This document shows, piece by piece, positions 11,286 to 52,743 of a stretch of DNA of 64,000 nt. The notes under the pieces were generated by a model that did not search any database, was not told where the DNA came from, and saw only the letters and a list, made by a program, of their open reading frames with translations. The stretch's first letter is position 1; every line of letters begins with the position of its first letter. The DNA is from Patescibacteria group bacterium (GTDB taxonomy: Bacteria; Patescibacteriota; Patescibacteriia; UBA2196): NCBI GenBank assembly GCA_028748975.1, contig JAQTPI010000004.1, forward strand, positions 14,734-78,733. The letters run 5' to 3'. The position numbers and the translations under genes were made by a program.

Positions 11286-11888
11286 ATGAAAAAGTCTTTG
11301 ATCGCAATCGTAGCGGTTGCAACTTTATTCTGCAGCTGCGTGGTGGCACAGGCAAAAGAAGCGACCAGCTACCATCACCTGGAAGGCACCAGTGAGATCG
11401 GTTTTTATGTGGTGCCGCTAACCGACAATATTTTTGACCTGATCGGATCGAACCTGGAGAGTGCCAGGGTTTGGGACAGTGGCCAGCAGAAGTATGTGGA
11501 GCTGGACACCACGGGGTTGAAATATTACGCCCGCCACGGCGCCGGATTTATCATCAAGGTGAAAAATCCACAGGAGCTGGAAGTGGTGGGCGAACCGGTT
11601 TCCACCAGCGACATCAAATTACTGACGGGCTGGAATTTCGTCACCAACACCACGGGAAGCTTTTACAATTATTTGGAAAAAGATTGTAAAGTGATCGCGC
11701 TGTGGATTTATACCGACGACGGGTACAAACCAGTCTCCGTGCAAGATTTTGAACTGGGAGACGGGACTCCGTTCTGGGTTTGTGCCCGGAAACCAGGGAA
11801 TCTCAAGCTGAAAAATTCTCAAAAAGAACCGGACATAACCACGGTTTTTACGAGGAATTTGACAGCTACCCCGCCGCCGATTCAATAA
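11286..11888 (+). CDS. Secreted hypothetical protein (200 aa) with a signal peptide.
   Basis: Preceded by an SD and the promoter module. Hydrophobic N-terminus (IAIVAVATLFCSCVVAQA). GC-rich. Confidence 0.65.
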   Translation: MKKSLIAIVAVATLFCSCVVAQAKEATSYHHLEGTSEIGFYVVPLTDNIFDLIGSNLESARVWDSGQQKYVELDTTGLKYYARHGAGFIIKVKNPQELEVVGEPVSTSDIKLLTGWNFVTNTTGSFYNYLEKDCKVIALWIYTDDGYKPVSVQDFELGDGTPFWVCARKPGNLKLKNSQKEPDITTVFTRNLTATPPPIQ

Positions 11889-19903: not shown

Positions 19904-20054
19904 TGGTGGAGCCGGCAGGATTCGAACCTGCGACCTTTCAAACTCGTAGAATTGGCCAATTTTTCCCTCACGCGCGCTTGGGAAAATTTGGGCAATTTTT
20001 ACCCTCTTTTTTAAGGAGAGAAGTTTGAAAACTCTCCCAACTGAGCTACGGCCC
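19904..20054 (-). tRNA. tRNA with Ala-type identity elements (G3:U70, D-arm TAGCTCAGTTGGGAGAG, encoded CCA), interrupted by an about 85-nt insertion between the two halves of the anticodon stem; intron-containing or disrupted.
   Basis: 5' half GGGGCCGTAGCTCAGTTGGGAGAGTTTTCAAAC, and 3' half GTTTGAAAGGTCGCAGGTTCGAATCCTGCCGGCTCCACCA. The halves TTCAAAC/GTTTGAA pair across an insert that has its own hairpins (ttttccc...gggaaaa; the AATTGGCCAATT palindrome). Confidence 0.55.
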
Positions 20055-20208
20055 CGATTCAACACGAGAACAAAATCGTAAAATAAAGTGACTTTTTTAT
20101 TTTAACAAGGTCTAAAAAACTTGTCAAATGTGGATAAGTAATATAAAATATAATAAGTAACTACCAATAAATAATAAGGGAAAAAATGAATAATCCCAAT
20201 GTTATTTT

Positions 20209-20502
20209 ATGCTAACACAAGAAGAAGTAAAACATATTGCGGATTTGGCGCGACTGGAACTGGTGCCGGAAGAGATTGAAAAATACCAAACACAGTTGGG
20301 GCGGATTTTGGATTATATAAATAAATTGGCGGAAGCCAAAACAGAAGGGGTGTCGACGGCGGATGGGGGAACGACGGATTTGGAAAACGTGTGGAGGACA
20401 GATGAAAAATCAGAAATTGGAAATCAGAAATCAGGTACGGATTTAATAAAAATGGCAGGAGAGGTGGAAGGAGGACAGGTGAAGGTGAAGAGTGTGTTTT
20501 AA
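20209..20502 (+). CDS. gatC: Asp/Glu-tRNA amidotransferase subunit C.
   Basis: MLTQEEVKHIADLARLELVPEEIEKYQTQLGRILDYINKL matches the GatC N-terminal pattern, and the gene sits immediately upstream of gatA. Confidence 0.85.
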   Translation: MLTQEEVKHIADLARLELVPEEIEKYQTQLGRILDYINKLAEAKTEGVSTADGGTTDLENVWRTDEKSEIGNQKSGTDLIKMAGEVEGGQVKVKSVF

Positions 20503-20611
20503 ACCATGAAAGCATGAAAACATAAAAGCATTAAAGCAAAAATAGTAATTAAAAATAAAGGTTAGTTGTTTTTGTTTTCATGTTTTAATGCTCTAATATT
20601 TTAATGTTGGT

Positions 20612-22030
20612 ATGATAAAAGAATTACATAATAAATTAATAAACAAAGAAATTTCGGCGGTGGAACTCACGACCGAGTATTTGGCGCGGGCTAAAAAATC
20701 AGATTTGAACGCTTTTATTACGATTACGGAAAGTGAAGCACTGGAACAAGCGGCGGTAGTGGACGAAGCGATTGAGAGAGGCGAAGAAATTCCGCTTTTG
20801 GCCGGCATACCGGCTTCCATTAAGGATTTATTAATGACAGAAGGCGTGCGCACGACCGCGGCTTCCAAAATTTTAGAAAATTATATCGCGCCTTATGACG
20901 CCACAGTGGTGAAAAAATTAAAAGAAAACGGTCTGGTCATGATTGGCAAAAACAACTGCGATGAATTTGCCATGGGGTCTTCCACCGAAAATTCAGCTTT
21001 TGGTCCGACTAAAAATCCTTATGACAAAACGCGAGTTGCGGGCGGCACTTCCGGCGGCTCCGCCGCCGCCGTAGCTAGTGATTTGTCCATCTATTCTATT
21101 GGCACGGACACTGGTGGCTCGGTGCGCCAACCAGCTGCTTTTTGTGGCGTGGTGGGAATGAAACCGACTTATGGGGCAGTTTCTCGTTTTGGGCTTATTG
21201 CTGACGCGTCATCACTGGATCAAGTCGGAGTGATTGCCAAAAGCGTGGAAGACGCGGAAATTGTTTTTAATGCTATTAAAGGGAAAGATGAGAGGGACGC
21301 GACTTCGACATTAAAACATGAAAACATTAAAACATTAAAACAAAACAATGGATTAAGGGGCATTAAAATTGGAATACCGAAAGAATATTTCAGCGAGGGT
21401 ATTGATCAGGAAGTGGGCGAGGCAATAGCTGATTTTATTAAACGGGCCAAAGATTTGGGCGCGGAAATTGTGGAAATAAGTTTGCCGCATATGGAGTATG
21501 CTTTGACCGTTTATTATATTATTCAGCCGGCCGAAGCCAGCGCGAATTTGGCACGTTATGACGGAGTTAGATACGGTAAATTAACAATTAACAATAAACA
21601 ATCAACAAATAACCAATTAATTGATATTTACAAAAAGACGCGGGCGGAGTTTTTGGGGCCGGAAGTGAAACGTAGAATAATGCTCGGGACATACGCTCTA
21701 TCTGCCGGCTACTATGATGCTTATTACAAAAAAGCGCAGCAGGTCCGGACTTTAATTCGAGAAGATTTTAAGAAAGCATTTGAGGAAGTGAATCTGATTT
21801 TCGCGCCAACCGCGCCGCATCCGGCTTGGAAAATTGGCGAAAAAATTGACGATCCCTTGGCAATGTATTTGGAAGATATTTTCACAGTGCCGGTTAATAT
21901 CGCAGGTTTGCCAGCACTGTCAGTGCCGGCCGGTATCACTAAAGCGGGGCTGCCAATTGGCGCGCAGATTATTGGTGGTTGGGGAAAAGAGGAAGAAATA
22001 TTTCAGGCGGGGAAAACGTTAGAGTTATAG
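20612..22030 (+). CDS. gatA: Glutamyl-tRNA(Gln) amidotransferase subunit A (amidase signature family).
   Basis: Gly/Ser-rich amidase signature GGSSGGSAAAVAS...GTDTGGSVRQPAAFCGVVGMKPTYG, and a Ser-cisSer-Lys triad context. Length is 472 aa. It contains short in-frame AT-rich repeat insertions (STLKHENIKTLKQNN; TINNKQSTNNQ). Confidence 0.95.
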   Translation: MIKELHNKLINKEISAVELTTEYLARAKKSDLNAFITITESEALEQAAVVDEAIERGEEIPLLAGIPASIKDLLMTEGVRTTAASKILENYIAPYDATVVKKLKENGLVMIGKNNCDEFAMGSSTENSAFGPTKNPYDKTRVAGGTSGGSAAAVASDLSIYSIGTDTGGSVRQPAAFCGVVGMKPTYGAVSRFGLIADASSLDQVGVIAKSVEDAEIVFNAIKGKDERDATSTLKHENIKTLKQNNGLRGIKIGIPKEYFSEGIDQEVGEAIADFIKRAKDLGAEIVEISLPHMEYALTVYYIIQPAEASANLARYDGVRYGKLTINNKQSTNNQLIDIYKKTRAEFLGPEVKRRIMLGTYALSAGYYDAYYKKAQQVRTLIREDFKKAFEEVNLIFAPTAPHPAWKIGEKIDDPLAMYLEDIFTVPVNIAGLPALSVPAGITKAGLPIGAQIIGGWGKEEEIFQAGKTLEL

Positions 22031-23610: not shown

Positions 23611-24687
23611 TTGATGTTTTTACATAATTATATTCCCAATCCAATTTTACTTGATTTAGGATTTTATCAAATCCGCTGGTATGGCCTTATTTTAGCGTTG
23701 GCCGTGGCTGGCGGATTTTTTATTCTTGCCCGCCTTCGCCGCTACGGTCAAGCCGGCGGCTATGGCGGGCAAGTTTCTGATCTTTTTACCAAAGACAATT
23801 TTTTTAATCTATTATTTTGGGTTGCGATTTGGGGAATTATCGGCGGAAGGTTGGTTCATGTTTTAACTTTTTTTGATTATTACTGGCAGCGGCCGCTGCA
23901 GATACTCGCAATTTGGAACGGGGGAATCGCTTTCTATGGCGTGTTTGCTGGTGGGTTAATTGCGGCAGGGGTTTTGACGCGCCGTGTCATCCTGAGCGAA
24001 GCCCGAATCCGCCAGCTGGCGGAGAGGGCGAAGCCGAAGGATTCCTCATACTTTCCATATGATAAAGGCGAAGGCCCGCCCGCCATGACTTCGTCAAGGC
24101 GAAGTCGGGCGGGGATTCATCGCTCCGCTCGGAATGACAAGAAAAACAAAACCATTATTCATCATTCATTATTCATTATTCTTGATGCCCTCGTCGTCGG
24201 CTTGGCTTTCGGCCAATTCATCGGCCGGTGGGGAAATTGGTTTAATCAGGAGCTTTTTGGAGGGCCAACGAATTTGCCTTGGGGAATTCCGATTGATATT
24301 TGGCATAGGCCAGTCGGCTTGGAAAATTTTACTTACTTTCATCCAATTTTTTTGTATGAGAGTCTGTTTTCTTTGGTTTTGTTTTTGGGGTTGTATTTTT
24401 TATACAAAAAAATACATTGTCATTTCGGGCCGAGACCCGGAATCCAGGAGAGTGGATCCCGGATCGGAGTCCGGGATGACAAGGCGGGTTTTGTTTTCTC
24501 CGCTTTTTTAATCTTCCATTCCACTGCCCGGTTTTTTTTGGAGTTTTTGCGCCTTGACGCGCAGCCGGAGTTTTTGGGTCTGTGCCTTTTCCAGTGGGTG
24601 GCGATAATAGAATTTATTTTGGGGTGGGTTGTGTATTTTTATGTTAGGGTGTGGTATAATAAAAGTAAGCTACGAATTTACGAATAA
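23611..24687 (+). CDS. lgt: Prolipoprotein diacylglyceryl transferase carrying two in-frame palindromic-element insertions.
   Basis: Lgt hallmarks are present (WYGLILALAVAGG, GGRLVHVL, WNGGIAFYGVFAGG, GRWGNWFNQELFGG, FLRLDAQPEF). They are interrupted by an about 50-aa insert (VILSEARIRQ...NDKKNKT) and an about 20-aa insert (GPRPGIQESGSRIGVRDDKAGF), encoded by family-A elements. Confidence 0.85.
   Translation: MMFLHNYIPNPILLDLGFYQIRWYGLILALAVAGGFFILARLRRYGQAGGYGGQVSDLFTKDNFFNLLFWVAIWGIIGGRLVHVLTFFDYYWQRPLQILAIWNGGIAFYGVFAGGLIAAGVLTRRVILSEARIRQLAERAKPKDSSYFPYDKGEGPPAMTSSRRSRAGIHRSARNDKKNKTIIHHSLFIILDALVVGLAFGQFIGRWGNWFNQELFGGPTNLPWGIPIDIWHRPVGLENFTYFHPIFLYESLFSLVLFLGLYFLYKKIHCHFGPRPGIQESGSRIGVRDDKAGFVFSAFLIFHSTARFFLEFLRLDAQPEFLGLCLFQWVAIIEFILGWVVYFYVRVWYNKSKLRIYE
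23984..24141. repeat. Composite of two family-A palindromic elements inserted in-frame in lgt.
   Basis: gtcatcctgagcgaagcc...ccgccagctggcgg...cgaaggattcct and ...ggattcatcgctccgctcggaatgacaa. No stop codons are present in the lgt frame. Confidence 0.75.
24426..24486. repeat. Family-A palindromic element inserted in-frame in lgt (second site).
   Basis: gggccgagacccggaatccaggagagtggatcccggatcggagtccgggatgacaa. Confidence 0.7.
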
Positions 24688-24776
24688 AACGAATGTACGA
24701 ATAAAGCGCAGAAACTTACCGCTATTCGTATATTCGTAGGATTTGTACATTCGTAAATAAAATTATTATTAATTTT

Positions 24777-25505
24777 ATGAAACCAAAAATTTTATTGATC
24801 GTTATTTTAGGTCTTTTTCTAACCCTTGGCACAGCGAATTTTGCTTTGGCTGATTGTAATTGCCAGTGTGAACAAAACGCACCAATAACTAGGGTAAAAG
24901 ATTTGATTACTTGTCGATCAAGTTGTCCAACACCGGCATCTGGAATTCCAGTAGAATGTCCAGTAATAAACGATAATCAGTGTGTTTGTGTTTGTAATAG
25001 TGGTTTATTAAGACATTTAACAGAACCTGGATCAGATTGTTCGACGGTCTGTTCTTCTGCTCAGGGAATAAATCAACCACAAACAACATGCGGATTAGCT
25101 ACTGCAAAGGATTGCATATGTTCTGATGGAACAAGAATGGGAAAAGTAATTTTTGACGAAGACTGTAAATCGAGATGCGCGGCTGCCGTGAATAATACTA
25201 GTGCTTCGGCTGGCGGCACACCAAATTCACAAGTTGAGCCGAGTACCCTCAGTAATCCACTGGGAGAGGTAAAGAGTGTTTCGCAGATTGCTGGGAAAAT
25301 CATCCAGGTAATAATTAGTTTACTGGGCGTGATTTCTTTATGTATGTTTATTTTTGCCGGTTTCACCTGGCTCACGGCCGGCGGCCGACCGGACGCTGTT
25401 AAGAAGGGCAGGGAAACAATGATTTGGGCGGTGGCGGGTTTGGCCGTGGTGTTTTCCAGTTATATTATTTTGAAGTTTGTATTTAAGATTTTGAGTGGTT
25501 TTTAG
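24777..25505 (+). CDS. Secreted Cys-rich protein with a C-terminal double-TM pilin-like (TrbC/VirB2-like) module.
   Basis: Signal peptide, about 24 Cys in the central region, and the C-terminal IAGKIIQVIISLLGVISLCMFIFAGFTWLTAGGRPDAVKKGRETMIWAVAGLAVVFSSYIIL, which resembles the VirB2/TrbC two-helix topology. Confidence 0.5.
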   Translation: MKPKILLIVILGLFLTLGTANFALADCNCQCEQNAPITRVKDLITCRSSCPTPASGIPVECPVINDNQCVCVCNSGLLRHLTEPGSDCSTVCSSAQGINQPQTTCGLATAKDCICSDGTRMGKVIFDEDCKSRCAAAVNNTSASAGGTPNSQVEPSTLSNPLGEVKSVSQIAGKIIQVIISLLGVISLCMFIFAGFTWLTAGGRPDAVKKGRETMIWAVAGLAVVFSSYIILKFVFKILSGF

Positions 25506-25883: not shown

Positions 25884-26624
25884 ATGACATTGTTTTATAT
25901 AATTTTGGCCACGCTTTTTATCAGCTTGATTTCGCTTTTGGCGGTTTTTTTATTTTTTAAATTTGGCCTGCATCGCCGGCTGGGAAATTTAATCAGTTTA
26001 TCAGCCGGAGTACTCCTCGCGGTGGCCTGGCTGGACACCTTGCCCGAGGCCTATAAGAACGGCCTGTCTTTTGAAAATTTGGGTTTGACCGTGCTTTTAA
26101 CTATTTTAATTTTATTTTTAGCCGAAGCGACTTTTCATTGGCATTCTTGCCAGCACGGTGATTGTGAAGCGGAAAAACACAAACACTTGGCTTGGTTTAA
26201 TTTGTTTGGCGACGGCTTGCATAATTTCGTGGATGGCGCGGTCATTGCGGCGGCTTTTTTGGCTGATGTTAAACTGGGACTGATTACGACGCTCGCGGTT
26301 TTGGTTCATGAAATTCCGCAGGAACTTTCCGATGCCAGCATTTTGAATTTTTCCGGTTTAACTAAAAAAAGAATTTATGGGTTTAATTTTTTATTCGCAA
26401 TTCTCGCCATGGCTGGCGGAGTGGCGACCTATTGTTTTGTTTTAAAATTTTCCATCATGGCTTATCTTTTGGCCATTGCCGGCGCGAATTTTATTTATCT
26501 GTCCTTGACAGATTTGATGCCTTTGGTGCACGAAGGGAATGAAAGAAAAAAAATTGTGAGTCAGGTGATTTGGTTTTTAATCGGAGTGAGTGTGATTTAT
26601 GGGTTGGGGGTGGTGGCGAAATAG
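25884..26624 (+). CDS. ZIP-family metal cation transporter (ZupT-like).
   Basis: Eight hydrophobic segments, the HEIPQELSDASIL signature (HExPxE) and a His-rich loop HWHSCQHGDCEAEKHKH. Confidence 0.85.
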   Translation: MTLFYIILATLFISLISLLAVFLFFKFGLHRRLGNLISLSAGVLLAVAWLDTLPEAYKNGLSFENLGLTVLLTILILFLAEATFHWHSCQHGDCEAEKHKHLAWFNLFGDGLHNFVDGAVIAAAFLADVKLGLITTLAVLVHEIPQELSDASILNFSGLTKKRIYGFNFLFAILAMAGGVATYCFVLKFSIMAYLLAIAGANFIYLSLTDLMPLVHEGNERKKIVSQVIWFLIGVSVIYGLGVVAK

Positions 26625-26701
26625 TCGTTTGTCGTTGAATGGCATCGCGGCCCGTATTGTGATACGGTTTACATTTTACGGCTATTAAATAGAATAAATT
26701 T
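26625..26701. repeat. Left inverted-repeat arm of the cassette carrying the four-helix-bundle gene; it begins TAGTCGTTT directly at the upstream stop codon.
   Basis: tagtcgtttgtcgttgaatggcatcgcggcccgtat... matches the reverse complement of the right arm (27098..27155) and both ends of the empty element at 41206..41322. Confidence 0.65.
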
Positions 26702-27145
26702 ATGGAACAGATTCCAATAAAAAAACCAATAATAAGTTTTAGAGATCTTGATGTTTATCAAAATTCTTATCGAGCAAGTATTGTCGTGATGACCAAAATA
26801 ATTCCCGCACTTCCAGCAAATGAGAAATATGATTTAAAAGATCAAATACAAAGAGCGTGTAAAGCAATTCCGCGTTTAATAGCCGAGGGTTTTGCAAAGA
26901 AACATCAGAAATTTGGTTTTCAGAAGTATCTTGATGATGCAATGGCCGAGTGTAATGAAATGATTGTTTGTATAGAACATGTAAAAGATATTTATAGAAT
27001 TCAAACAGATTTATGCGAAGAATTAATTGATACTTATGATAAGTCTGCAAGACAGCTGTTTAAATTAGGTGAGGCATGGTGCAATTTTAAGAATAGGAGA
27101 CGAATGACGATGCCGAATGACGATACGGGTGGCGACGCCGTATAA
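26702..27145 (+). CDS. Four-helix-bundle protein of the '23S rRNA intervening-sequence protein' family.
   Basis: FRDLDVYQNSYRASIVVMT...IQRACKAIPRLIAEGFAKK...YLDDAMAECNEM matches the family pattern (F.DL.VYQ...R...SIP.NIAEG). Its last about 15 codons are encoded by the right IR arm. Confidence 0.7.
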   Translation: MEQIPIKKPIISFRDLDVYQNSYRASIVVMTKIIPALPANEKYDLKDQIQRACKAIPRLIAEGFAKKHQKFGFQKYLDDAMAECNEMIVCIEHVKDIYRIQTDLCEELIDTYDKSARQLFKLGEAWCNFKNRRRMTMPNDDTGGDAV

Positions 27146-27155
27146 CGTAAAACAA
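27098..27155. repeat. Right inverted-repeat arm of the four-helix-bundle cassette.
   Basis: The reverse complement gttttacgttatacggcgtcgccacccgtatcgtcattcg is approximately equal to the left end of the 41206 element (cgttttacgttaaacggcgtcgccgcccgtatcgtttacg). Confidence 0.65.
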
Positions 27156-27180
27156 TTAATAATTTTTTAAGATAAAATAT

Positions 27181-28911
27181 ATGAAACGAATTTTTATTAT
27201 TTTATTTCTGTTTGTATTGGTTTTTCCGTTAGCTACGCGCGCGGAAGAAATTTCTTCGTTTAAGGTGGCGATGGAAGTTAATCCCAACGGGAAGTTTTTG
27301 GTAGTGGAAAAAATCGTTTATGATTTTGGGGTGCCAATGGTGGAGAAGCACGGGATTTATCGCGATATTCCTTACCAATATAAGATAGAAAATAAGACCC
27401 GCGAGATTGGTTTGAAGGTTTTAAGCGTTAAAGACGAAAATGGCGCGTCGGTTAATTACGAAAGAAGCACCGGTAATGGCGTGGTGCGCCTGAAAATCGG
27501 CAAAGCCAATGTTTTGGTTTCTGGCCTTAAAACCTACGTCATTACCTATGAAATTTCGGACGCGGTTAATTTTTTTGATAATCAGGATGAAATCTATTGG
27601 AATGTGACGGGCAACGGCTGGGAAGTGCCGATTATTTTGGCGGAAGCCAGAATTTCCGCGCCGTTTTTTGGCACAGAAAAAGATAAAATTCAAGCCGTCT
27701 GTTATACCGGCGTTTATGGCGCTAAAGACAAAAATTGCCAAATTGGCTGGCAGGGCGAGGAAATAGTTTTAACAGCAGGTTCTTTAGCGGCGAGCGAAGG
27801 GCTTTCGGTGGCAGTGGGTTGGCCCAAGGGCTTGGTGAAAGGGCCATCAGAGGCAAGTATTTTATGGAATAAAATTCGCCAGTTTTTACCATTACTTTTT
27901 CCCATCATTATTTTTATTTATTTATATATTTATTGGAAAAAGCACGGCAAAGATCCGGCTGGGCGCGGCACGATTATTCCGGAATATGAACCGCCAAAAC
28001 AAATGCTCCCGGGTGAAGGCGGAGTAGTGATTGATGAAAAAATGGACACGCGCGACATCACGGCGACGGTGATTGATTTGGCGCGGCGCGGATATTTCAA
28101 GTTGGCAGAAGTGGAGAAAAAAGTTTTGGGAATTGGAGCGGGCAAGGACTGGAAAATTATTAAAACCAAAGAAGCGGACGCCAATTTAAGTGATTTTGAA
28201 AAAGAATTATACGATACGTTTTTATCCGGACGGCAGGAAGTTTTGGTTTCTGATTTGAAACAACAGACAACTGCGCGCCAACATATTAAAAAAATGAAGG
28301 AATTAGTTTATGAAGCAGTAGTGGTTAAGGGCTGGTTTGCGGCTAATCCGGATAAGGCCAGACAAAAATTTGTGGGAATTGGTACGGCAATTATTATTGG
28401 GTTGTTTGTAGCTGGTGGGGCGCTGGGTCTTTTTCAATTTGGCGCGATCATGATTATTTCTTTAATTATTTCCGCAGCCTTGTTTATTATCTTTGGCAAA
28501 TATATGCCGCAGAAAACAGAAGAGGGCGCTTTGGCCAAAGAATATTTGGATGGATTTAAAATGTTTTTAAGTGTGACAGAGAAAGATCGGGTGGAGTTTC
28601 ATTTTTCACCTTCGGCACACCCGGAAAAGTTTGCGGAGTATCTGCCCTGGGCGATTATTTTTGGAGTGGAAAAACAATGGGCGGAAGTTTTCAAAGGTAT
28701 TGATTTGCCGGCGCCGGATTGGTATGAAGGCAATTGGAGCGGAATGTATACAGCGATGATTTTGAGCGATTCGCTCCATTCTTTTGATTCCAATTTTAGC
28801 AAAGCCATGACAGCGGTTGGGGCGAGCGCCGCCGCGGGCGGAGCTTCGGGCTTTGGCGGCGGGGGATTTTCCGGCGGCGGCTTTGGCGGCGGCGGGGGAG
28901 GGAGTTGGTAA
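27181..28911 (+). CDS. DUF2207-like membrane protein with a Gly-rich C-terminus.
   Basis: Signal peptide, a large extracytoplasmic domain, TM helices, a YIYWKKHGKDPAGRGTIIPEYEPP segment and a C-terminal (GGGF)n tail. Confidence 0.65.
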   Translation: MKRIFIILFLFVLVFPLATRAEEISSFKVAMEVNPNGKFLVVEKIVYDFGVPMVEKHGIYRDIPYQYKIENKTREIGLKVLSVKDENGASVNYERSTGNGVVRLKIGKANVLVSGLKTYVITYEISDAVNFFDNQDEIYWNVTGNGWEVPIILAEARISAPFFGTEKDKIQAVCYTGVYGAKDKNCQIGWQGEEIVLTAGSLAASEGLSVAVGWPKGLVKGPSEASILWNKIRQFLPLLFPIIIFIYLYIYWKKHGKDPAGRGTIIPEYEPPKQMLPGEGGVVIDEKMDTRDITATVIDLARRGYFKLAEVEKKVLGIGAGKDWKIIKTKEADANLSDFEKELYDTFLSGRQEVLVSDLKQQTTARQHIKKMKELVYEAVVVKGWFAANPDKARQKFVGIGTAIIIGLFVAGGALGLFQFGAIMIISLIISAALFIIFGKYMPQKTEEGALAKEYLDGFKMFLSVTEKDRVEFHFSPSAHPEKFAEYLPWAIIFGVEKQWAEVFKGIDLPAPDWYEGNWSGMYTAMILSDSLHSFDSNFSKAMTAVGASAAAGGASGFGGGGFSGGGFGGGGGGSW

Positions 28912-32088: not shown

Positions 32089-32485
32089 TGGTGGAGGCGG
32101 CCGGAATTTCACCGGCGTCTAACGTTAATCAATAAACTATTCTACAAGCGTAGTTCGTTTTATGGTTCAACTTTAAGCTTGAAAACGGACAAAACACTTA
32201 AAGTTAAAGCCCAGAGTTTCGCCATTTTTACCGGGCCAGTAACAATGGCTAGTCCACTGTTTATAACACCCAAAACGACTTAGTGAACCTCGGTCGTTTG
32301 GATGGCCATAGGATTTAAGCTATGGCATAAGCCGGTTGAGAAACAAAAGCGTTAGCCAAAGAGGCAACGCCAGCTTTCACCCGGTTATATAGATTGGCAT
32401 TTATAGCCTTTGAGGCGGTTTTACGGGGCACCCCGGCCCGACTTGCTTAATTTAAAGCTTAAAGCTATCAAATTAAAACGCCCCC
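32089..32485 (-). ncRNA. ssrA: Candidate tmRNA (ssrA), about 397 nt, with an encoded CCA.
   Basis: 5' GGGGGCG pairs with 3' CGCCUCC-A-CCA and includes G3:U70. A T-arm GCCGG-UGAAAUU-CCGGC is present. A pseudoknot-like CCGGGGUGCCCCGUAAAACCGCC precedes an internal reading frame ending ...QPAYAIA-UAA (GCC AUA GCU UAA), which resembles tag-peptide termini. smpB lies 0.7 kb away, and a TTGACA-17-TATACT promoter lies 58 nt upstream. Confidence 0.55.
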
Positions 32486-32550
32486 GTAATTTAATTTTTA
32501 ATTTCTAATTTCTAATTTTTAATACTCTGCTTAATACAGGCATCAAGATA

Positions 32551-40045: not shown

Positions 40046-40357
40046 ATGAAGAAAAGCAAGAATTACTGTGTTTATATCACGACGAACATTTGGGATAATG
40101 TTTTCTATGTCGGCATTTCTGGTAATTTGATAAAAAGAGAAAATCAGCATAAAGTAAAATTTAAAGACGGTTTTACTAAAAAATATAATGTTGATAAATT
40201 AGTCTATTTTGAATGTTTTGATAATCCAACCGAAGCTATCAAAAGAGAAAAAGAAATTAAGAGCTGGAGAAGAGAAAAGAAAATAAATTTGATAAAAACA
40301 ATAAATCCGGAGTTTAAAGAGTTGGGTGGAGATTGGTGGAGAAATATAATGGCGTGA
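40046..40357 (+). CDS. Stand-alone GIY-YIG nuclease domain protein (103 aa); paralogue of 16292..16603.
   Basis: NYCVYITTNIWDNVFYVGISGNLIKRENQHK...GFTKKYNVDKLVYFE...REKEIKSW. Confidence 0.7.
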   Translation: MKKSKNYCVYITTNIWDNVFYVGISGNLIKRENQHKVKFKDGFTKKYNVDKLVYFECFDNPTEAIKREKEIKSWRREKKINLIKTINPEFKELGGDWWRNIMA

Positions 40358-40479
40358 TGTCATCCCGAGCGGAGCGTGGGATCTCGTGGATGACAGTAAA
40401 TTATAATAAAATTAATTTGCGGAGTAAGCTACGAGATTCCTCGTCGTCCCGAAGCGTCAGGACTCCTCGGAATGACATC
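40358..40479. repeat. Two family-A elements: a hairpin-less 'joined-ends' copy overlapping the GIY-YIG stop, and a full forward copy.
   Basis: gtcatcccgagcggagcgtgggatctcgtgg ; acgagattcctcgtcgtcccgaagcgtcaggactcctcggaatgacat. Confidence 0.75.
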
Positions 40480-40488
40480 CGTCTGAAT

Positions 40489-41205
40489 ATGCCTCTCATC
40501 CAAACCAAAAACTTAAACAAAGAATACTGCACTGACGAGGTGAAAACGCCGGTGCTTTTTGATATTGATTTGGAAATCAATTCTGGGGAATTCGTGTCCA
40601 TCATGGGGCCTTCTGGTTCTGGCAAATCGACACTTATGCACATTTTGGGTTTTTTGGATCGATTAACGAGCGGCCAATATCTTTTTGAGAGTGCTGATGT
40701 GACCGGCTTTGATGATAAAAAATTAGCGCGGATTCGCAATGAAAAAATCGGTTTTGTTTTTCAGTCATTTAATCTTTTGCCGCGCACCACTGTTTTGGAA
40801 AACGTAAAACTACCTTTGCAATATCGGCCGGGGTTGAAAGAAAAAGAAAAAAATGAAATGGCAGAGAGTGCCTTGAAAGCGGTCGGGCTGGAACATCGCA
40901 TGAATTTTTTCTCCAACCAGCTTTCGGGCGGAGAAAAGCAAAGAGTGGCAATTGCGCGGGCTTTGGTTACAGACCCAACTTTAATTTTTGCCGATGAACC
41001 AACGGGTAATTTGGATTCCAAATCCGGGCTACAAATTATGGAAATTTTAGACAAGCTTAACAAGGCCGGCAAAACCATAATTTTGGTGACACACGAAACC
41101 AACACGGCCAGTTTTGCGCACCGGATAATTGCGTTGAAAGACGGCAGAATTGTGAGCGATAGGAAGGTTGATAATAGAAATCAGTTTAACGGAACCTTAA
41201 AGTAG
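40489..41205 (+). CDS. MacB/LolD-type ABC transporter ATP-binding protein.
   Basis: Walker [10 protein letters not shown], signature [15 protein letters not shown] and Walker [13 protein letters not shown]. The track ORF start at 40333 is an artefact of reading through the repeat elements, and ATG 40489 (MPLIQTKNL) is used. Confidence 0.9.
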
Positions 41206-41322
41206 TCGTTTTACGTTAAACGGCGTCGCCGCCCGTATCGTTTACGATTTGGTTGGACGTAAAACCTTTAACGACTGCCGATACGCGCCGCGAGGCCGTA
41301 TAACGACAAATGAAAATAATTT
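41206..41322. repeat. Empty (ORF-less) copy of the inverted-repeat element that carries the four-helix-bundle gene at 26625..27155.
   Basis: It begins TAGTCGTTT at the stop codon. Both ends match the cassette arms, and the element is internally self-complementary. Confidence 0.65.
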
Positions 41323-41349: not shown

Positions 41350-42582
41350 ATGACATACAAATTACTCCTCCATTCATCAATCAGAGCTCTCCGAGCGAAT
41401 CGCAATCGCACGTTTTTGACGATTCTTGGAATTGTCATCGGCATTTCTTCAGTGATTGTGATTATGTCCGTGGGCGCCGGCGCGCAGAGCTTGATTTTTA
41501 ATCAAATGGCGTCGGTCGGCACCAATATGATTGGAATTTTGCCGGGCTATAGCGATGAAGAAGGGCCGCCGGCATCGGTGATGGGGGTGGTGATTACCAC
41601 CCTGAAGGCCAAAGACGCCGAGGAATTGAAAAAAATTAAGGAAGTGACGGCCGTGGCTGCCTATGTGCGCGGCGTGGACACGGCCCAAGCGCAGGGTCAA
41701 AAAATGGATATAACTTTTTTAGGAGTATCCGCTGATTACCCGAGAGTGGAGAATGCCGAACTGGAGCTCGGTTCTTTTTTTGATCAAGCCCAAGACAAAG
41801 AAATGGCGCGGGTGGCGGTTTTGGGCTATGAGGTCTGGCAGCAATTGTTTAACGGTGATAATCCCATAGGCGCGCATGTAAAAATTAAAAACGAAAGTTT
41901 TGACGTGATTGGGGTTTTTGAAAAACGCGGGACGGAGTCGTTTGAAAATAAAGACAATATGATTTTAGTGCCCTTAACTACGGCGCAAAAATTGCTTTTG
42001 GGTATTGACCATATCAGTATGATTCATCTACTGGTCAAAAGCGACAATGACGTGCCGGCGGCCCTGGAACAAATTAAAAGCATTTTGCGCGAAGAGCACG
42101 ACATTGAACCCGGCATGAGCGATGATTTTACGGCGCGCTCCGCGGCGCAGGGGCTGGAAGCTTTGAAACAAGTAACCAATGCCTTGAAATTTTTTCTGGC
42201 CGGCATGGCGGCAATTTCACTCATTGTCGGGGGAGTGGGGATTATGAATATCATGCTCGTGGCGGTGAATGAAAGAACCAGAGAAATTGGACTGCGCAAA
42301 GCGATTGGCGCTACGGCCAGAAATGTCCAAGAACAATTTTTGATTGAAGCGGTCACGGTAACAATTCTTGGCGGCATTGTCGGAATTATTTTTGGAATTT
42401 TAACTTCGGCCATGGTGGCCGGAGTGGCAAAATATTTGGGCTATGACTGGGATTTGGTGGTGACCATGCCTTCAATTTTAATGGGCGTAGGAGTTTCCGG
42501 GGCAGTGGGGATTTTATTTGGGTGGTATCCCGCGAAAAAAGCGGCGGGGTTGGAACCGGTGGAGGCGTTGAGGCACGAGTAG
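41350..42582 (+). CDS. ABC transporter permease of the MacB/FtsX family.
   Basis: N-terminal TM helix, a large periplasmic domain, and a C-terminal FtsX-type three-TM bundle (LRKAIGATARNVQEQFLIEAV...). Confidence 0.85.
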   Translation: MTYKLLLHSSIRALRANRNRTFLTILGIVIGISSVIVIMSVGAGAQSLIFNQMASVGTNMIGILPGYSDEEGPPASVMGVVITTLKAKDAEELKKIKEVTAVAAYVRGVDTAQAQGQKMDITFLGVSADYPRVENAELELGSFFDQAQDKEMARVAVLGYEVWQQLFNGDNPIGAHVKIKNESFDVIGVFEKRGTESFENKDNMILVPLTTAQKLLLGIDHISMIHLLVKSDNDVPAALEQIKSILREEHDIEPGMSDDFTARSAAQGLEALKQVTNALKFFLAGMAAISLIVGGVGIMNIMLVAVNERTREIGLRKAIGATARNVQEQFLIEAVTVTILGGIVGIIFGILTSAMVAGVAKYLGYDWDLVVTMPSILMGVGVSGAVGILFGWYPAKKAAGLEPVEALRHE

Positions 42583-51938: not shown

Positions 51939-52171
51939 TTTAATAATTCAACTTTTCTTGTTTACTTGCGCACCGGGCGGCAGGGGAGTATAATATATTA
52001 GTAACAGAATAACGAAGTAATAAAGGGAAATAGGGATATAAGGATATAAAAAATAAAATTATTTTATTATCAATATAAATTATTTTACGAATTCATATAT
52101 TCGCCCGCCTTGCCCGCTTCGCAGCGAGGCGAGCCGACGAGGCAGGTACAATTCGTAATTCGTAGGATTCT

Positions 52172-52612
52172 ATGGAAGAACAACAACCAATAAAAAACTA
52201 TTCTTATAAAATTACCACGAGTGGCTGGGTGGTGATTGGTATTATAGTTTTGGCGGTGATTGGCAGCGTTTTATTTTTTATCAGCAAAAAAAGCGGAGGC
52301 TTGAACAAAAACAGTTCTGATTGGCAAGCAATCTTTTTGTCCAATGGGCAAACATATTTTGGACAGGTAGTTTCTGAAAACAATGACAGCGTGATCATCA
52401 GAAATGTTTATTATTTGGTAGGCATGACAAGCCCGCAAGAAATAAGCGAAACAGATAAAAACAAAGATTTTTCTTTAATTAAGTTAGGCAGTGAAGTTCA
52501 TGGACCAATTGATGAAATGCGCATCAATCGAAATCATATTTTGTTTGTAGAAGATTTGCGCGCTGATTCCAAAATCGTGAAAGCGATTGACGAGTATCAG
52601 AAGAAGAAGTAA
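52172..52612 (+). CDS. Small membrane-anchored hypothetical protein (146 aa).
   Basis: One N-terminal TM helix (WVVIGIIVLAVIGSVLFFI), followed by a strong terminator. Confidence 0.55.
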   Translation: MEEQQPIKNYSYKITTSGWVVIGIIVLAVIGSVLFFISKKSGGLNKNSSDWQAIFLSNGQTYFGQVVSENNDSVIIRNVYYLVGMTSPQEISETDKNKDFSLIKLGSEVHGPIDEMRINRNHILFVEDLRADSKIVKAIDEYQKKK

Positions 52613-52664: not shown

Positions 52665-52743
52665 TTTGAAGATATCTATCCTTTGTTACCCTGTTACTCT
52701 GTTACTCTGTTACTTTGTTATTATGTTATTTTTTATTTATTAG

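Follow-up and report, generated by a model that had tools for sequence, protein, structure and literature searches.

A putative family of hairpin cassettes, akin to rRNA intervening sequences, in bacterial operons outside rRNA

A 64-kb stretch of contig JAQTPI010000004.1 from a Patescibacteria group bacterium (the whole analyzed stretch, 64,000 nt, is called the window) contains two copies of an inverted-repeat cassette in spacers between protein-coding genes. One copy carries a gene for a 147-aa four-helix-bundle protein of the 23S rRNA intervening sequence (IVS) family, S23p; the other has no open reading frame (ORF). Both features are best explained, with about even confidence, as members of one old, widespread family of rRNA-IVS-type selfish hairpin cassettes that reside outside rRNA. 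The full form would consist of a promoterless gene of S23p/Avd fold between inverted arms of degenerate ~7-nt (13-nt) repeats, and the short form of the arms that remain after gene loss. The cassettes almost always lie co-directionally in host operons, within short stop-to-start spacers; the occupied junction varies among related genomes; internal deletion gives rise to ORF-less copies; and the gene-between-inverted-arrays layout recurs around the PF05635 family in cyanobacteria, Bacteroidota and the Candidate Phyla Radiation (CPR).

Two copies of one cassette and the protein encoded in one of them

A first-pass annotation, made from the letters of the window, had placed the four-helix-bundle gene between mutually inverted arms of 60-75 bp. 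Repeat search, arm profile and folding agree on this arrangement and make the arms slightly shorter, about 46-69 nt. The repeat search delimits 46-nt arms at 26622-26667 and 27113-27158 (72% complementary), the arm profile matches 26624-26677 and 27098-27156, and in the minimum-energy fold of 26610-27170 the arm stem encloses the entire insert, pairing along approximately the arm lengths given in Table 1. As annotated, the left arm starts at the stop codon of the upstream gene (TAG, 26622-26624), immediately followed by TCGTTT, and the right arm encodes the end of the protein; the downstream gene begins 23 nt beyond it. A promoter and terminator scan returned a single promoter-like site, 26668-26695, just 5' of the ORF; the count of such sites did not rise above that in shuffled sequences, and no conservation of the site was visible by eye upstream in three related elements (L001e2, L002 and L153; loci from other genomes carry L numbers throughout).

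The second copy had been described as a 117-bp element at 41206-41322 with both arms, no ORF and a start at a stop codon. All of this holds except the ends, which are moved to 41203-41315 (113 nt): the element opens at the ATPase gene's TAG (41203-41205), and 35 nt separate its end from the MacB permease gene. Its terminal inverted repeats span 35 nt (41206-41240 and 41279-41313, 80% complementary) and, together with its small size, give it the outline of a transposable element of the miniature inverted-repeat type (MITE). Its fold (-47.2 kcal/mol, z = -3.8) was equalled by none of 200 shuffles. One consensus fits all four arms in an alignment, and the motif CGTTNNANGGCNTCGCNNCNCGTAT matches the window at exactly four places, two per strand and in inverted pairs, against 0.01 expected in 64 kb; the arm similarity on which the first-pass annotation depended thus has statistical backing. 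These are the two elements of the source genome within the window.

Table 1. Positions of the two cassettes and their host genes in the window
Feature	Position	Strand	Remarks
ZIP transporter gene, upstream host	25884-26624	+	co-directional with the ORF-bearing cassette
Left arm, ORF-bearing cassette	26622-26690	+	pairs with 27090-27158 in the fold; core TCGTTTGTCGTTGAATGGCATCGCGGCCCGTAT conserved
Four-helix-bundle gene, 147 aa	26702-27145	+	PF05635 and TIGR02436 profile matches
Right arm, the left arm inverted	27090-27158	+	holds TAA stop 27143-27145 and the last ~16 ORF codons
DUF2207 membrane protein gene, downstream host	27181-28911	+	co-directional with the ORF-bearing cassette
ABC transporter ATPase gene, upstream host of the ORF-less element	40333-41205	+	
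ORF-less cassette copy, 113 nt	41203-41315	+	left arm ~41203-41262, right arm ~41261-41315
MacB/FtsX permease gene, downstream host of the ORF-less element	41350-42582	+	

Like rRNA IVSs, the window elements have complementary ends that form a stem around the insert. As first noted, they lie between protein-coding genes: no rRNA was found inside the 64-kb window, so neither element occupies helix 25 or 45 of 23S rRNA, where IVSs are located. Rfam gave no match at gathering score across the window and nothing of note at E<=10 on either element.

The protein is a clear member of its family, scoring 68.8 bits against PF05635 (cut-off 33.8) and 54.4 bits against TIGR02436 (cut-off 24), and PF05635 is the sole domain detected in the gene between the arms; PADLOC and PHROGs hold no match for it. 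An AlphaFold (AF2) model built from 34 homologues (mean predicted local distance difference test score 86.5) has four helices at residues 17-127 and a predicted disordered tail, residues 128-147, which is the part encoded by the right arm. The best solved-structure matches of the model are Xcc0516 (2GSC) and BT_0352 (2RLD), with Avd (4DWL) lower in the list; 2GSC and 2RLD contain five chains (A-E) apiece, and the Xanthomonas S23p has been described as a homopentamer (PMC4990558). An identical protein occurs in a Patescibacteria metagenome-assembled genome (MAG). There are more than 2,600 homologues, the best 120 of which are 62-76% identical to the window protein and have Portnoybacteria, Levybacteria, Uhrbacteria and WOR-3 among their named sources. 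The arm-encoded tail motif [ND][DE]T[GS] ends 57 of these 120, with variants in many more, and the right arm is therefore widespread.

Relatives in other genomes: position, gain and loss

Further copies, for which the first-pass annotation had proposed a search, exist: window-type arms are present in Portnoybacteria, WOR-3 and metagenome contigs, at some places around the ORF and at others without it. In Portnoybacteria and WOR-3 the proteins that they flank are 65-75% identical; the arms of WOR-3 locus L002 are the same as those of the window, and in Portnoybacteria locus L001 an ORF-less element is directly followed by an ORF-bearing one. More elements were collected with the arm profile and two pattern scans, the profile identifying two-armed elements at ~20 further loci. 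ORF-less elements are present at L043, L078, L122, L127, L129 (two), L068, L048, L153 (two), L151 and L160, and ORF-bearing ones at L123, L131, L141, L151, L153, L157, L158 and L096. An 18-base GC-rich core pattern, scanned against a genome collection, yielded ~9 real loci among the matches listed, which were mostly chance matches in high-GC genomes; at least four of the matches listed on a 2.8-Mb WOR-3 chromosome are loci with elements. A strict 24-base pattern found nine metagenome loci, all real, and no element in viral contigs. Look-ups of two exact proteins (P0022 and P0009) returned many contigs with identical context across samples and no new insertion sites. Among 18 related loci, none has an element inside rRNA, and at one the element precedes a 16S gene by 350 nt. 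This is an ORF-less element in an rRNA operon leader (L129, 13396-13522; its ortholog is L043, 145-271), placed 21 nt after a 416-aa gene and ~350 nt before the start of 16S.

The distance from the upstream stop codon to the element is 0-5 nt at several loci and 0-36 nt overall, that from the element to the next start is 0-37 nt, and the flanking genes are co-directional; the four-helix-bundle gene is co-directional with the upstream gene in 27 of 28 cases examined. The elements are near stop codons because they sit in very short operon spacers. The preference for TAG or other stop codons that had been raised as a possibility is not established: the conserved terminus begins TCGTT, and the base before it is variable. 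Since conservation stops at TCGTT, the TAGTCGTTT common to both window copies is a stop codon abutting the terminus and not evidently part of the element. A TA or TAG target preference lost its support once the arms were anchored on their core.

Occupancy differs between genomes. In three syntenic methylmalonyl/propionate operons of WOR-3-like genomes, the ORF-bearing cassette sits at three distinct junctions. In L002 it separates the acetyl-CoA hydrolase and glyoxalase genes, which in L153 overlap by 4 nt; in L153 it separates the lactamase_B and carboxyltransferase genes, a junction that in L157 is a 76-nt spacer with no arm-profile match; and in L157 it separates the carboxyltransferase and biotin carboxylase genes, where L153 holds an ORF-less element. 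The filled/empty pair formed by L002 and L153 is compatible with a TA/CTAT duplication, the flanks having diverged. The MacB junction of the window is also variable: a relative at 81% identity (L160) keeps a diverged ORF-less copy, and in one at 92% identity (L159) the element is absent and an unrelated AT-rich hairpin stands in its place. These sequence comparisons support mobility, or at least gain and loss, of the cassette, much as the first-pass annotation had suggested. A route to the short form is visible in L124, which has L002-type arms and a similar downstream gene and from which residues 74-120 of the ORF are deleted; this internal deletion shows how ORF-less forms can originate.

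One ORF-less copy has entered a coding region. In a Portnoybacteria MAG (L068, 6353-6442) it lies in frame within a 701-aa recG-like helicase gene, to which it adds ~30 extra residues, including an arm-encoded NDTSRD motif; such a copy fits poorly with obligatory cleavage by RNase III.

In two CPR genomes, both prgI junctions of an operon resembling a type IV secretion system (T4SS; PrgI, TraC-like) hold four-helix-bundle cassettes, of two arm families (L001, 4831-6175; L131, 1083-2289), and in L131 one of the four-helix-bundle copies at these junctions is interrupted by a stop codon. In L160 (11240-11720) an 86-aa GIY-YIG ORF (11378-11638) with GC-rich inverted repeats lies between two MacB permease genes; the corresponding junction lacks both ORF and repeats in L159 as well as in the window.

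Conserved, periodic arms and a possible link to heptamer arrays

Selection acts on both parts of the cassette. Between ORF-bearing elements, synonymous third positions are 41% identical, as against 81% at codon positions 1 and 2, 74% in the non-coding left-arm core and 78% in the right-arm core; judged by the synonymous sites, protein and arms are therefore both under purifying selection. In an alignment of 23 elements, 79% of cells pair when the arms are in register, compared with 26-45% when they are slid. Pair 17-48 is unpaired in 21 of the 23, and compensatory-looking change is limited to the handful of most diverged elements (L131, L003a).

The arms are periodic. Autocorrelation of the window-type family gives z = 8.5 at offset 7 and z = 5.8 at offset 13, and the window arms are degenerate repeats with a period of 7/13; other arm families reach z = 3.9-7.6 at offset 7 or 8. 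Other CPR four-helix-bundle genes (L001, 5780-6154; L003, 6803-7183; the disrupted L131 copy) have inverted arms that are unrelated to those of the window and have a 7-nt period. Thirteen family genes drawn from plasmids of cultured bacteria and five CPR genes were tested alike. The plasmid genes are co-directional with the upstream gene in 12 of 13 cases, e.g., Cas6|gene|Cas4 and Cmr2|gene|Cmr3, and 10 of the 13 have highly significant inverted arrays of 7-8-nt units (z = 5-18), such as (AGTCAGG)n in Nostoc, Aulosira and Trichormus, (GGGAACA)n in N. edaphicum and (GGGTGTA)n in Calothrix. Overall, significant flanking inverted arrays accompany 15 of 18 four-helix-bundle genes (z 2.8 to 18; cyanobacteria, Riemerella, CPR) and 4 of 56 controls; of the four positive controls, two are insertion sequence (IS) transposases and at least one has a four-helix-bundle arm next to it. 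Two array-less family genes, in Nostoc PCC 7120 plasmid pCC7120gamma (L166, 1504-1854) and Nostoc HK-01 (L175, 3922-4272), lie directly downstream of a co-directional ISL3-family transposase gene.

Published observations place heptamers next to this family. In Coxiella, RNase III cuts the 23S IVS, whose terminal stem measures 28 bp and whose S23p ORF is preceded by 3-4 heptameric repeats (PMC4990558). In X. campestris, 70 GGGAATC arrays form convergent pairs (PMC4692102), and a (GGGAATC)4 array adjoining bccP overlaps the start of XCC0516, the gene for Xcc0516 (PMC4692102 supplement). Family ORFs are also found within 16S and 23S rRNA insertions of CPR bacteria (PMC11270868). In the papers on heptamer repeats and IVSs that were consulted, no link was found between the PF05635 family and heptamer-repeat hairpins outside rRNA, and those on heptamer arrays tie the arrays to no protein family. 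Intergenic heptamer arrays, i.e., the short tandemly repeated repetitive (STRR) sequences of cyanobacteria, the GGGAATC arrays of Xanthomonas and the TAACTGA arrays of Beggiatoaceae, consist of tandem 7-nt units, often as convergent pairs, as the arms do, and their taxa overlap with the carriers of four-helix-bundle genes (Xanthomonas, cyanobacteria, Bacteroidota); by contrast, the window arms are degenerate rather than perfect tandem repeats. A broader, testable implication, put forward tentatively and as less probable than the reading of the window elements themselves, is that the S23p family is the missing protein partner of these arrays (STRR, the Xanthomonas GGGAATC pairs and the window arms). 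A ring of about five subunits would read 4-6 tandem 7-8-nt units per arm; gene and inverted arrays together would make up a single class of mobile, self-insulating cassettes, pan-bacterial in extent and resident in rRNA helices and at operon stop/start junctions; and thousands of ORF-less hairpins would be its fossils.

The window contains other periodic hairpins. An AT-rich ORF-less hairpin of ~7-8-nt units (AACATGA/AACATTA) occupies 20499-20607, just upstream of gatA (20612-22030), and a third copy of the array, at 21308-21345, lies in frame inside gatA and encodes TLKHENIKTLKQN. The inverted repeat 20570/21308 was rejected as a cassette: its second arm is this in-frame repeat insert. Inverted (CTGTTAC)n-type arrays (51990-52026 and 52680-52724) surround a predicted membrane ORF of 146 aa (52172-52612) that has no significant family match, directly after a 2210-aa gene; arrays and ORF together may constitute another type of ORF-bearing hairpin cassette. 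The spacer that separates lgt (23611-24687) from a T4SS-pilin-like gene (24777-25505) holds an 83-nt hairpin (24676-24758) composed of TACGAAT-like units, and an inverted repeat with (AATTTCT)n units (32452-32522) overlaps the tmRNA gene (minus strand, 32089-32485) at its 3' end. A 149-nt tRNA on the minus strand (19907-20055), called by Rfam (46.7 bits) and not by ARAGORN, has a normal acceptor/D arm and T arm split by a ~75-nt insert with its own hairpin, AATTGCCCAAATTTTCCC / GGGAAAAATTGGCCAATT; the insert may represent an intervening sequence within the tRNA gene.

Weighing the explanations

If the window elements are selfish cassettes of the IVS type, they would be transcribed by read-through from the host operon. 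Pairing of the arms would loop the insert out and bring the upstream stop and downstream start together, so operons would tolerate an insertion just as rRNA helices do. The four-helix-bundle gene would be translated from the loop, and the conserved periodic arms would be a site recognized by a protein, most probably the ring-forming one that the cassette encodes; by likeness to rRNA IVSs, RNase III may also act on the stem.

Several results weigh against parts of this account. The elements were found through an arm consensus, which biases the sample to conserved arms. In the 23-element alignment, shuffling the partners leaves pairing almost unchanged (79.0% observed, 78.6% shuffled), and covariation (0.109 against 0.096±0.010 in shuffles) is reached by 50 of 500 shuffles, i.e., there is no compensatory signal. 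Complementarity to the own arm (0.63) is not preferred over that to non-own arms (0.67), sense and antisense fold energies differ in both directions with no strand bias, and the sense-corrected mismatches (47 G:U against 60 A:C) show no sense-strand excess of G:U. Neither a target-site duplication nor a defined target was established, the core-anchored arms having conservation that ends at TCGTT. The cassette is accompanied by no transposase, integrase or reverse transcriptase, and flanking inverted arrays are absent at some family genes, e.g., the PCC 7120 and HK-01 copies. Binding of the arms by the protein, finally, is purely inferential. From these alignments, RNA pairing is not supported as the selected property; since covariation and a G:U excess are lacking, sequence-specific recognition is better supported than an RNA stem, and the arms look like a sequence-specific site present twice, in opposite orientations.

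This pattern also fits the main rival: a conventional MITE moved by an unlinked transposase, in which the terminal inverted repeats carry subterminal sites for an enzyme encoded elsewhere, the gene is a passenger and the hairpin is irrelevant. Arms conserved in sequence rather than through compensatory pairing, the missing strand bias, periodic sub-repeats that look like multiple binding sites, junction occupancy that differs between genomes, the internally deleted derivative, the in-frame insertion in recG and the TA/CTAT comparison all suit it. MITE- and REPIN-like elements, i.e., Correia/NEMIS (Neisseria miniature insertion sequences), enterobacterial repetitive intergenic consensus (ERIC) sequences, hairpin-forming repetitive extragenic palindromes with their REP-associated tyrosine transposases (REPIN-RAYT) and Rickettsia palindromic elements (RPE), likewise have ~110-nt inverted repeats, occupy transcribed intergenic spacers, form long hairpins, originate by deletion, vary in occupancy between genomes and on occasion insert in frame. 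Against this explanation, an unlikely one, stand several observations. No form with a transposase gene turned up; the longest one observed has the four-helix-bundle gene only, in place of a transposase or RAYT. The supposed passenger is under strong purifying selection and is always linked to arms, across arm families unrelated in sequence. The arms are arrays of 7-8-nt repeats; other copies have no consistent duplication or target; and the copies seen per genome are few (two in 64 kb, at least four loci in the 2.8-Mb WOR-3 chromosome). Two specific mobile systems were rejected. A REP/REPIN-RAYT origin fails on the gene between the arms, which is PF05635 only and not a RAYT (a Y1 HUH transposase). 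An integron/attC origin fails on the order of the arms, CGTTATACGG ... CCGTATAACG, i.e., GTT...AAC, the opposite of RYYYAAC...GTTRRRY; moreover, the arms flank the ORF rather than follow it, and the copies are single and in unrelated operons.

Alternatively, the elements could be host-beneficial operon punctuation, with the stem acting as a site at which RNase III or another nuclease processes or stabilizes the transcript, uncoupling the stability or translation of cistrons, and the protein acting as a regulator; this corresponds to the RNA-processing cassette of the first-pass annotation. Long imperfect stems of 35-50 bp in transcribed operon spacers would suit such a role, as would the cutting by RNase III of rRNA IVS stems of the same architecture (PMC4990558), the leader copy that precedes a 16S rRNA gene, and pair 17-48, open as though an internal loop were kept. 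Against a processing function stand the lack of covariation and of a sense-strand G:U excess, host genes that are functionally unrelated, and the in-frame recG copy, whose efficient cleavage would be harmful. Orthologous junctions of close relatives are empty or hold a decayed element, and the element is therefore dispensable; punctuation appears slightly less probable than a MITE.

A remnant or satellite of a diversity-generating retroelement (DGR), in which the gene would be Avd and the arms leftover template or target-recognition structures, is largely refuted and very improbable. CPR genomes are rich in DGRs, and the protein shares the four-helix-bundle fold of Avd from Bordetella phage BPP-1 (4DWL, TM-score 0.83, normalized to target) as well as membership in a ring-forming, nucleic-acid-binding protein family. 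Avd functions alongside a reverse transcriptase while bound to structured RNA. The window, by contrast, has no reverse transcriptase and no template or variable repeat (TR/VR); the protein reaches 13.8 bits with the NCBIfam Avd model NF033474, whose cut-off is 80, neither PADLOC nor PHROGs supports the assignment, and the neighbors encode a ZIP transporter and a DUF2207 protein, an adjacent reverse transcriptase being found at none of ~20 loci. Chance repeats, of which any AT-rich intergenic stretch yields many weak ones, are refuted, with a negligible residual probability, by the four arm-motif matches against 0.01 expected, by the identical arm type in other phyla and by arm identity well above that of synonymous sites.

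Among the systems most like the cassette are the ORF-bearing 23S rRNA IVSs of the Leptospira and Coxiella type. The IVS-like architecture recognized at the outset persists on closer analysis: a PF05635 protein, stem-forming terminal inverted repeats around the ORF, ~7-nt tandem repeats by the ORF, versions whose ORF is missing or decaying, and a sporadic phylogenetic distribution. The cassettes described here differ in location, between the protein genes of operons, once in a coding gene and once upstream of 16S, not in helix 25 or 45. RNase III cuts IVSs out of the transcript, whose ends are not rejoined, a step that is hypothetical for the present cassette. Its ORF is clearly under purifying selection, whereas that of the Coxiella IVS was reported to be decaying and probably untranslated (PMC4990558).

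Three questions have stood for decades: the function of the "23S rRNA IVS protein", with its thousands of genes and solved structure, the origin of rRNA IVSs and the purpose of heptamer arrays. The present analysis suggests that the protein family, the origin of the IVSs and the arrays are parts of one system. It also bears on how genes of this family in cas, secretion and biosynthetic operons are understood. Cas operons alone contain 18 genes of the four-helix-bundle family (PMC3936711); such placements have been interpreted as functional associations (e.g., PMC3936711) and are more likely insertions.

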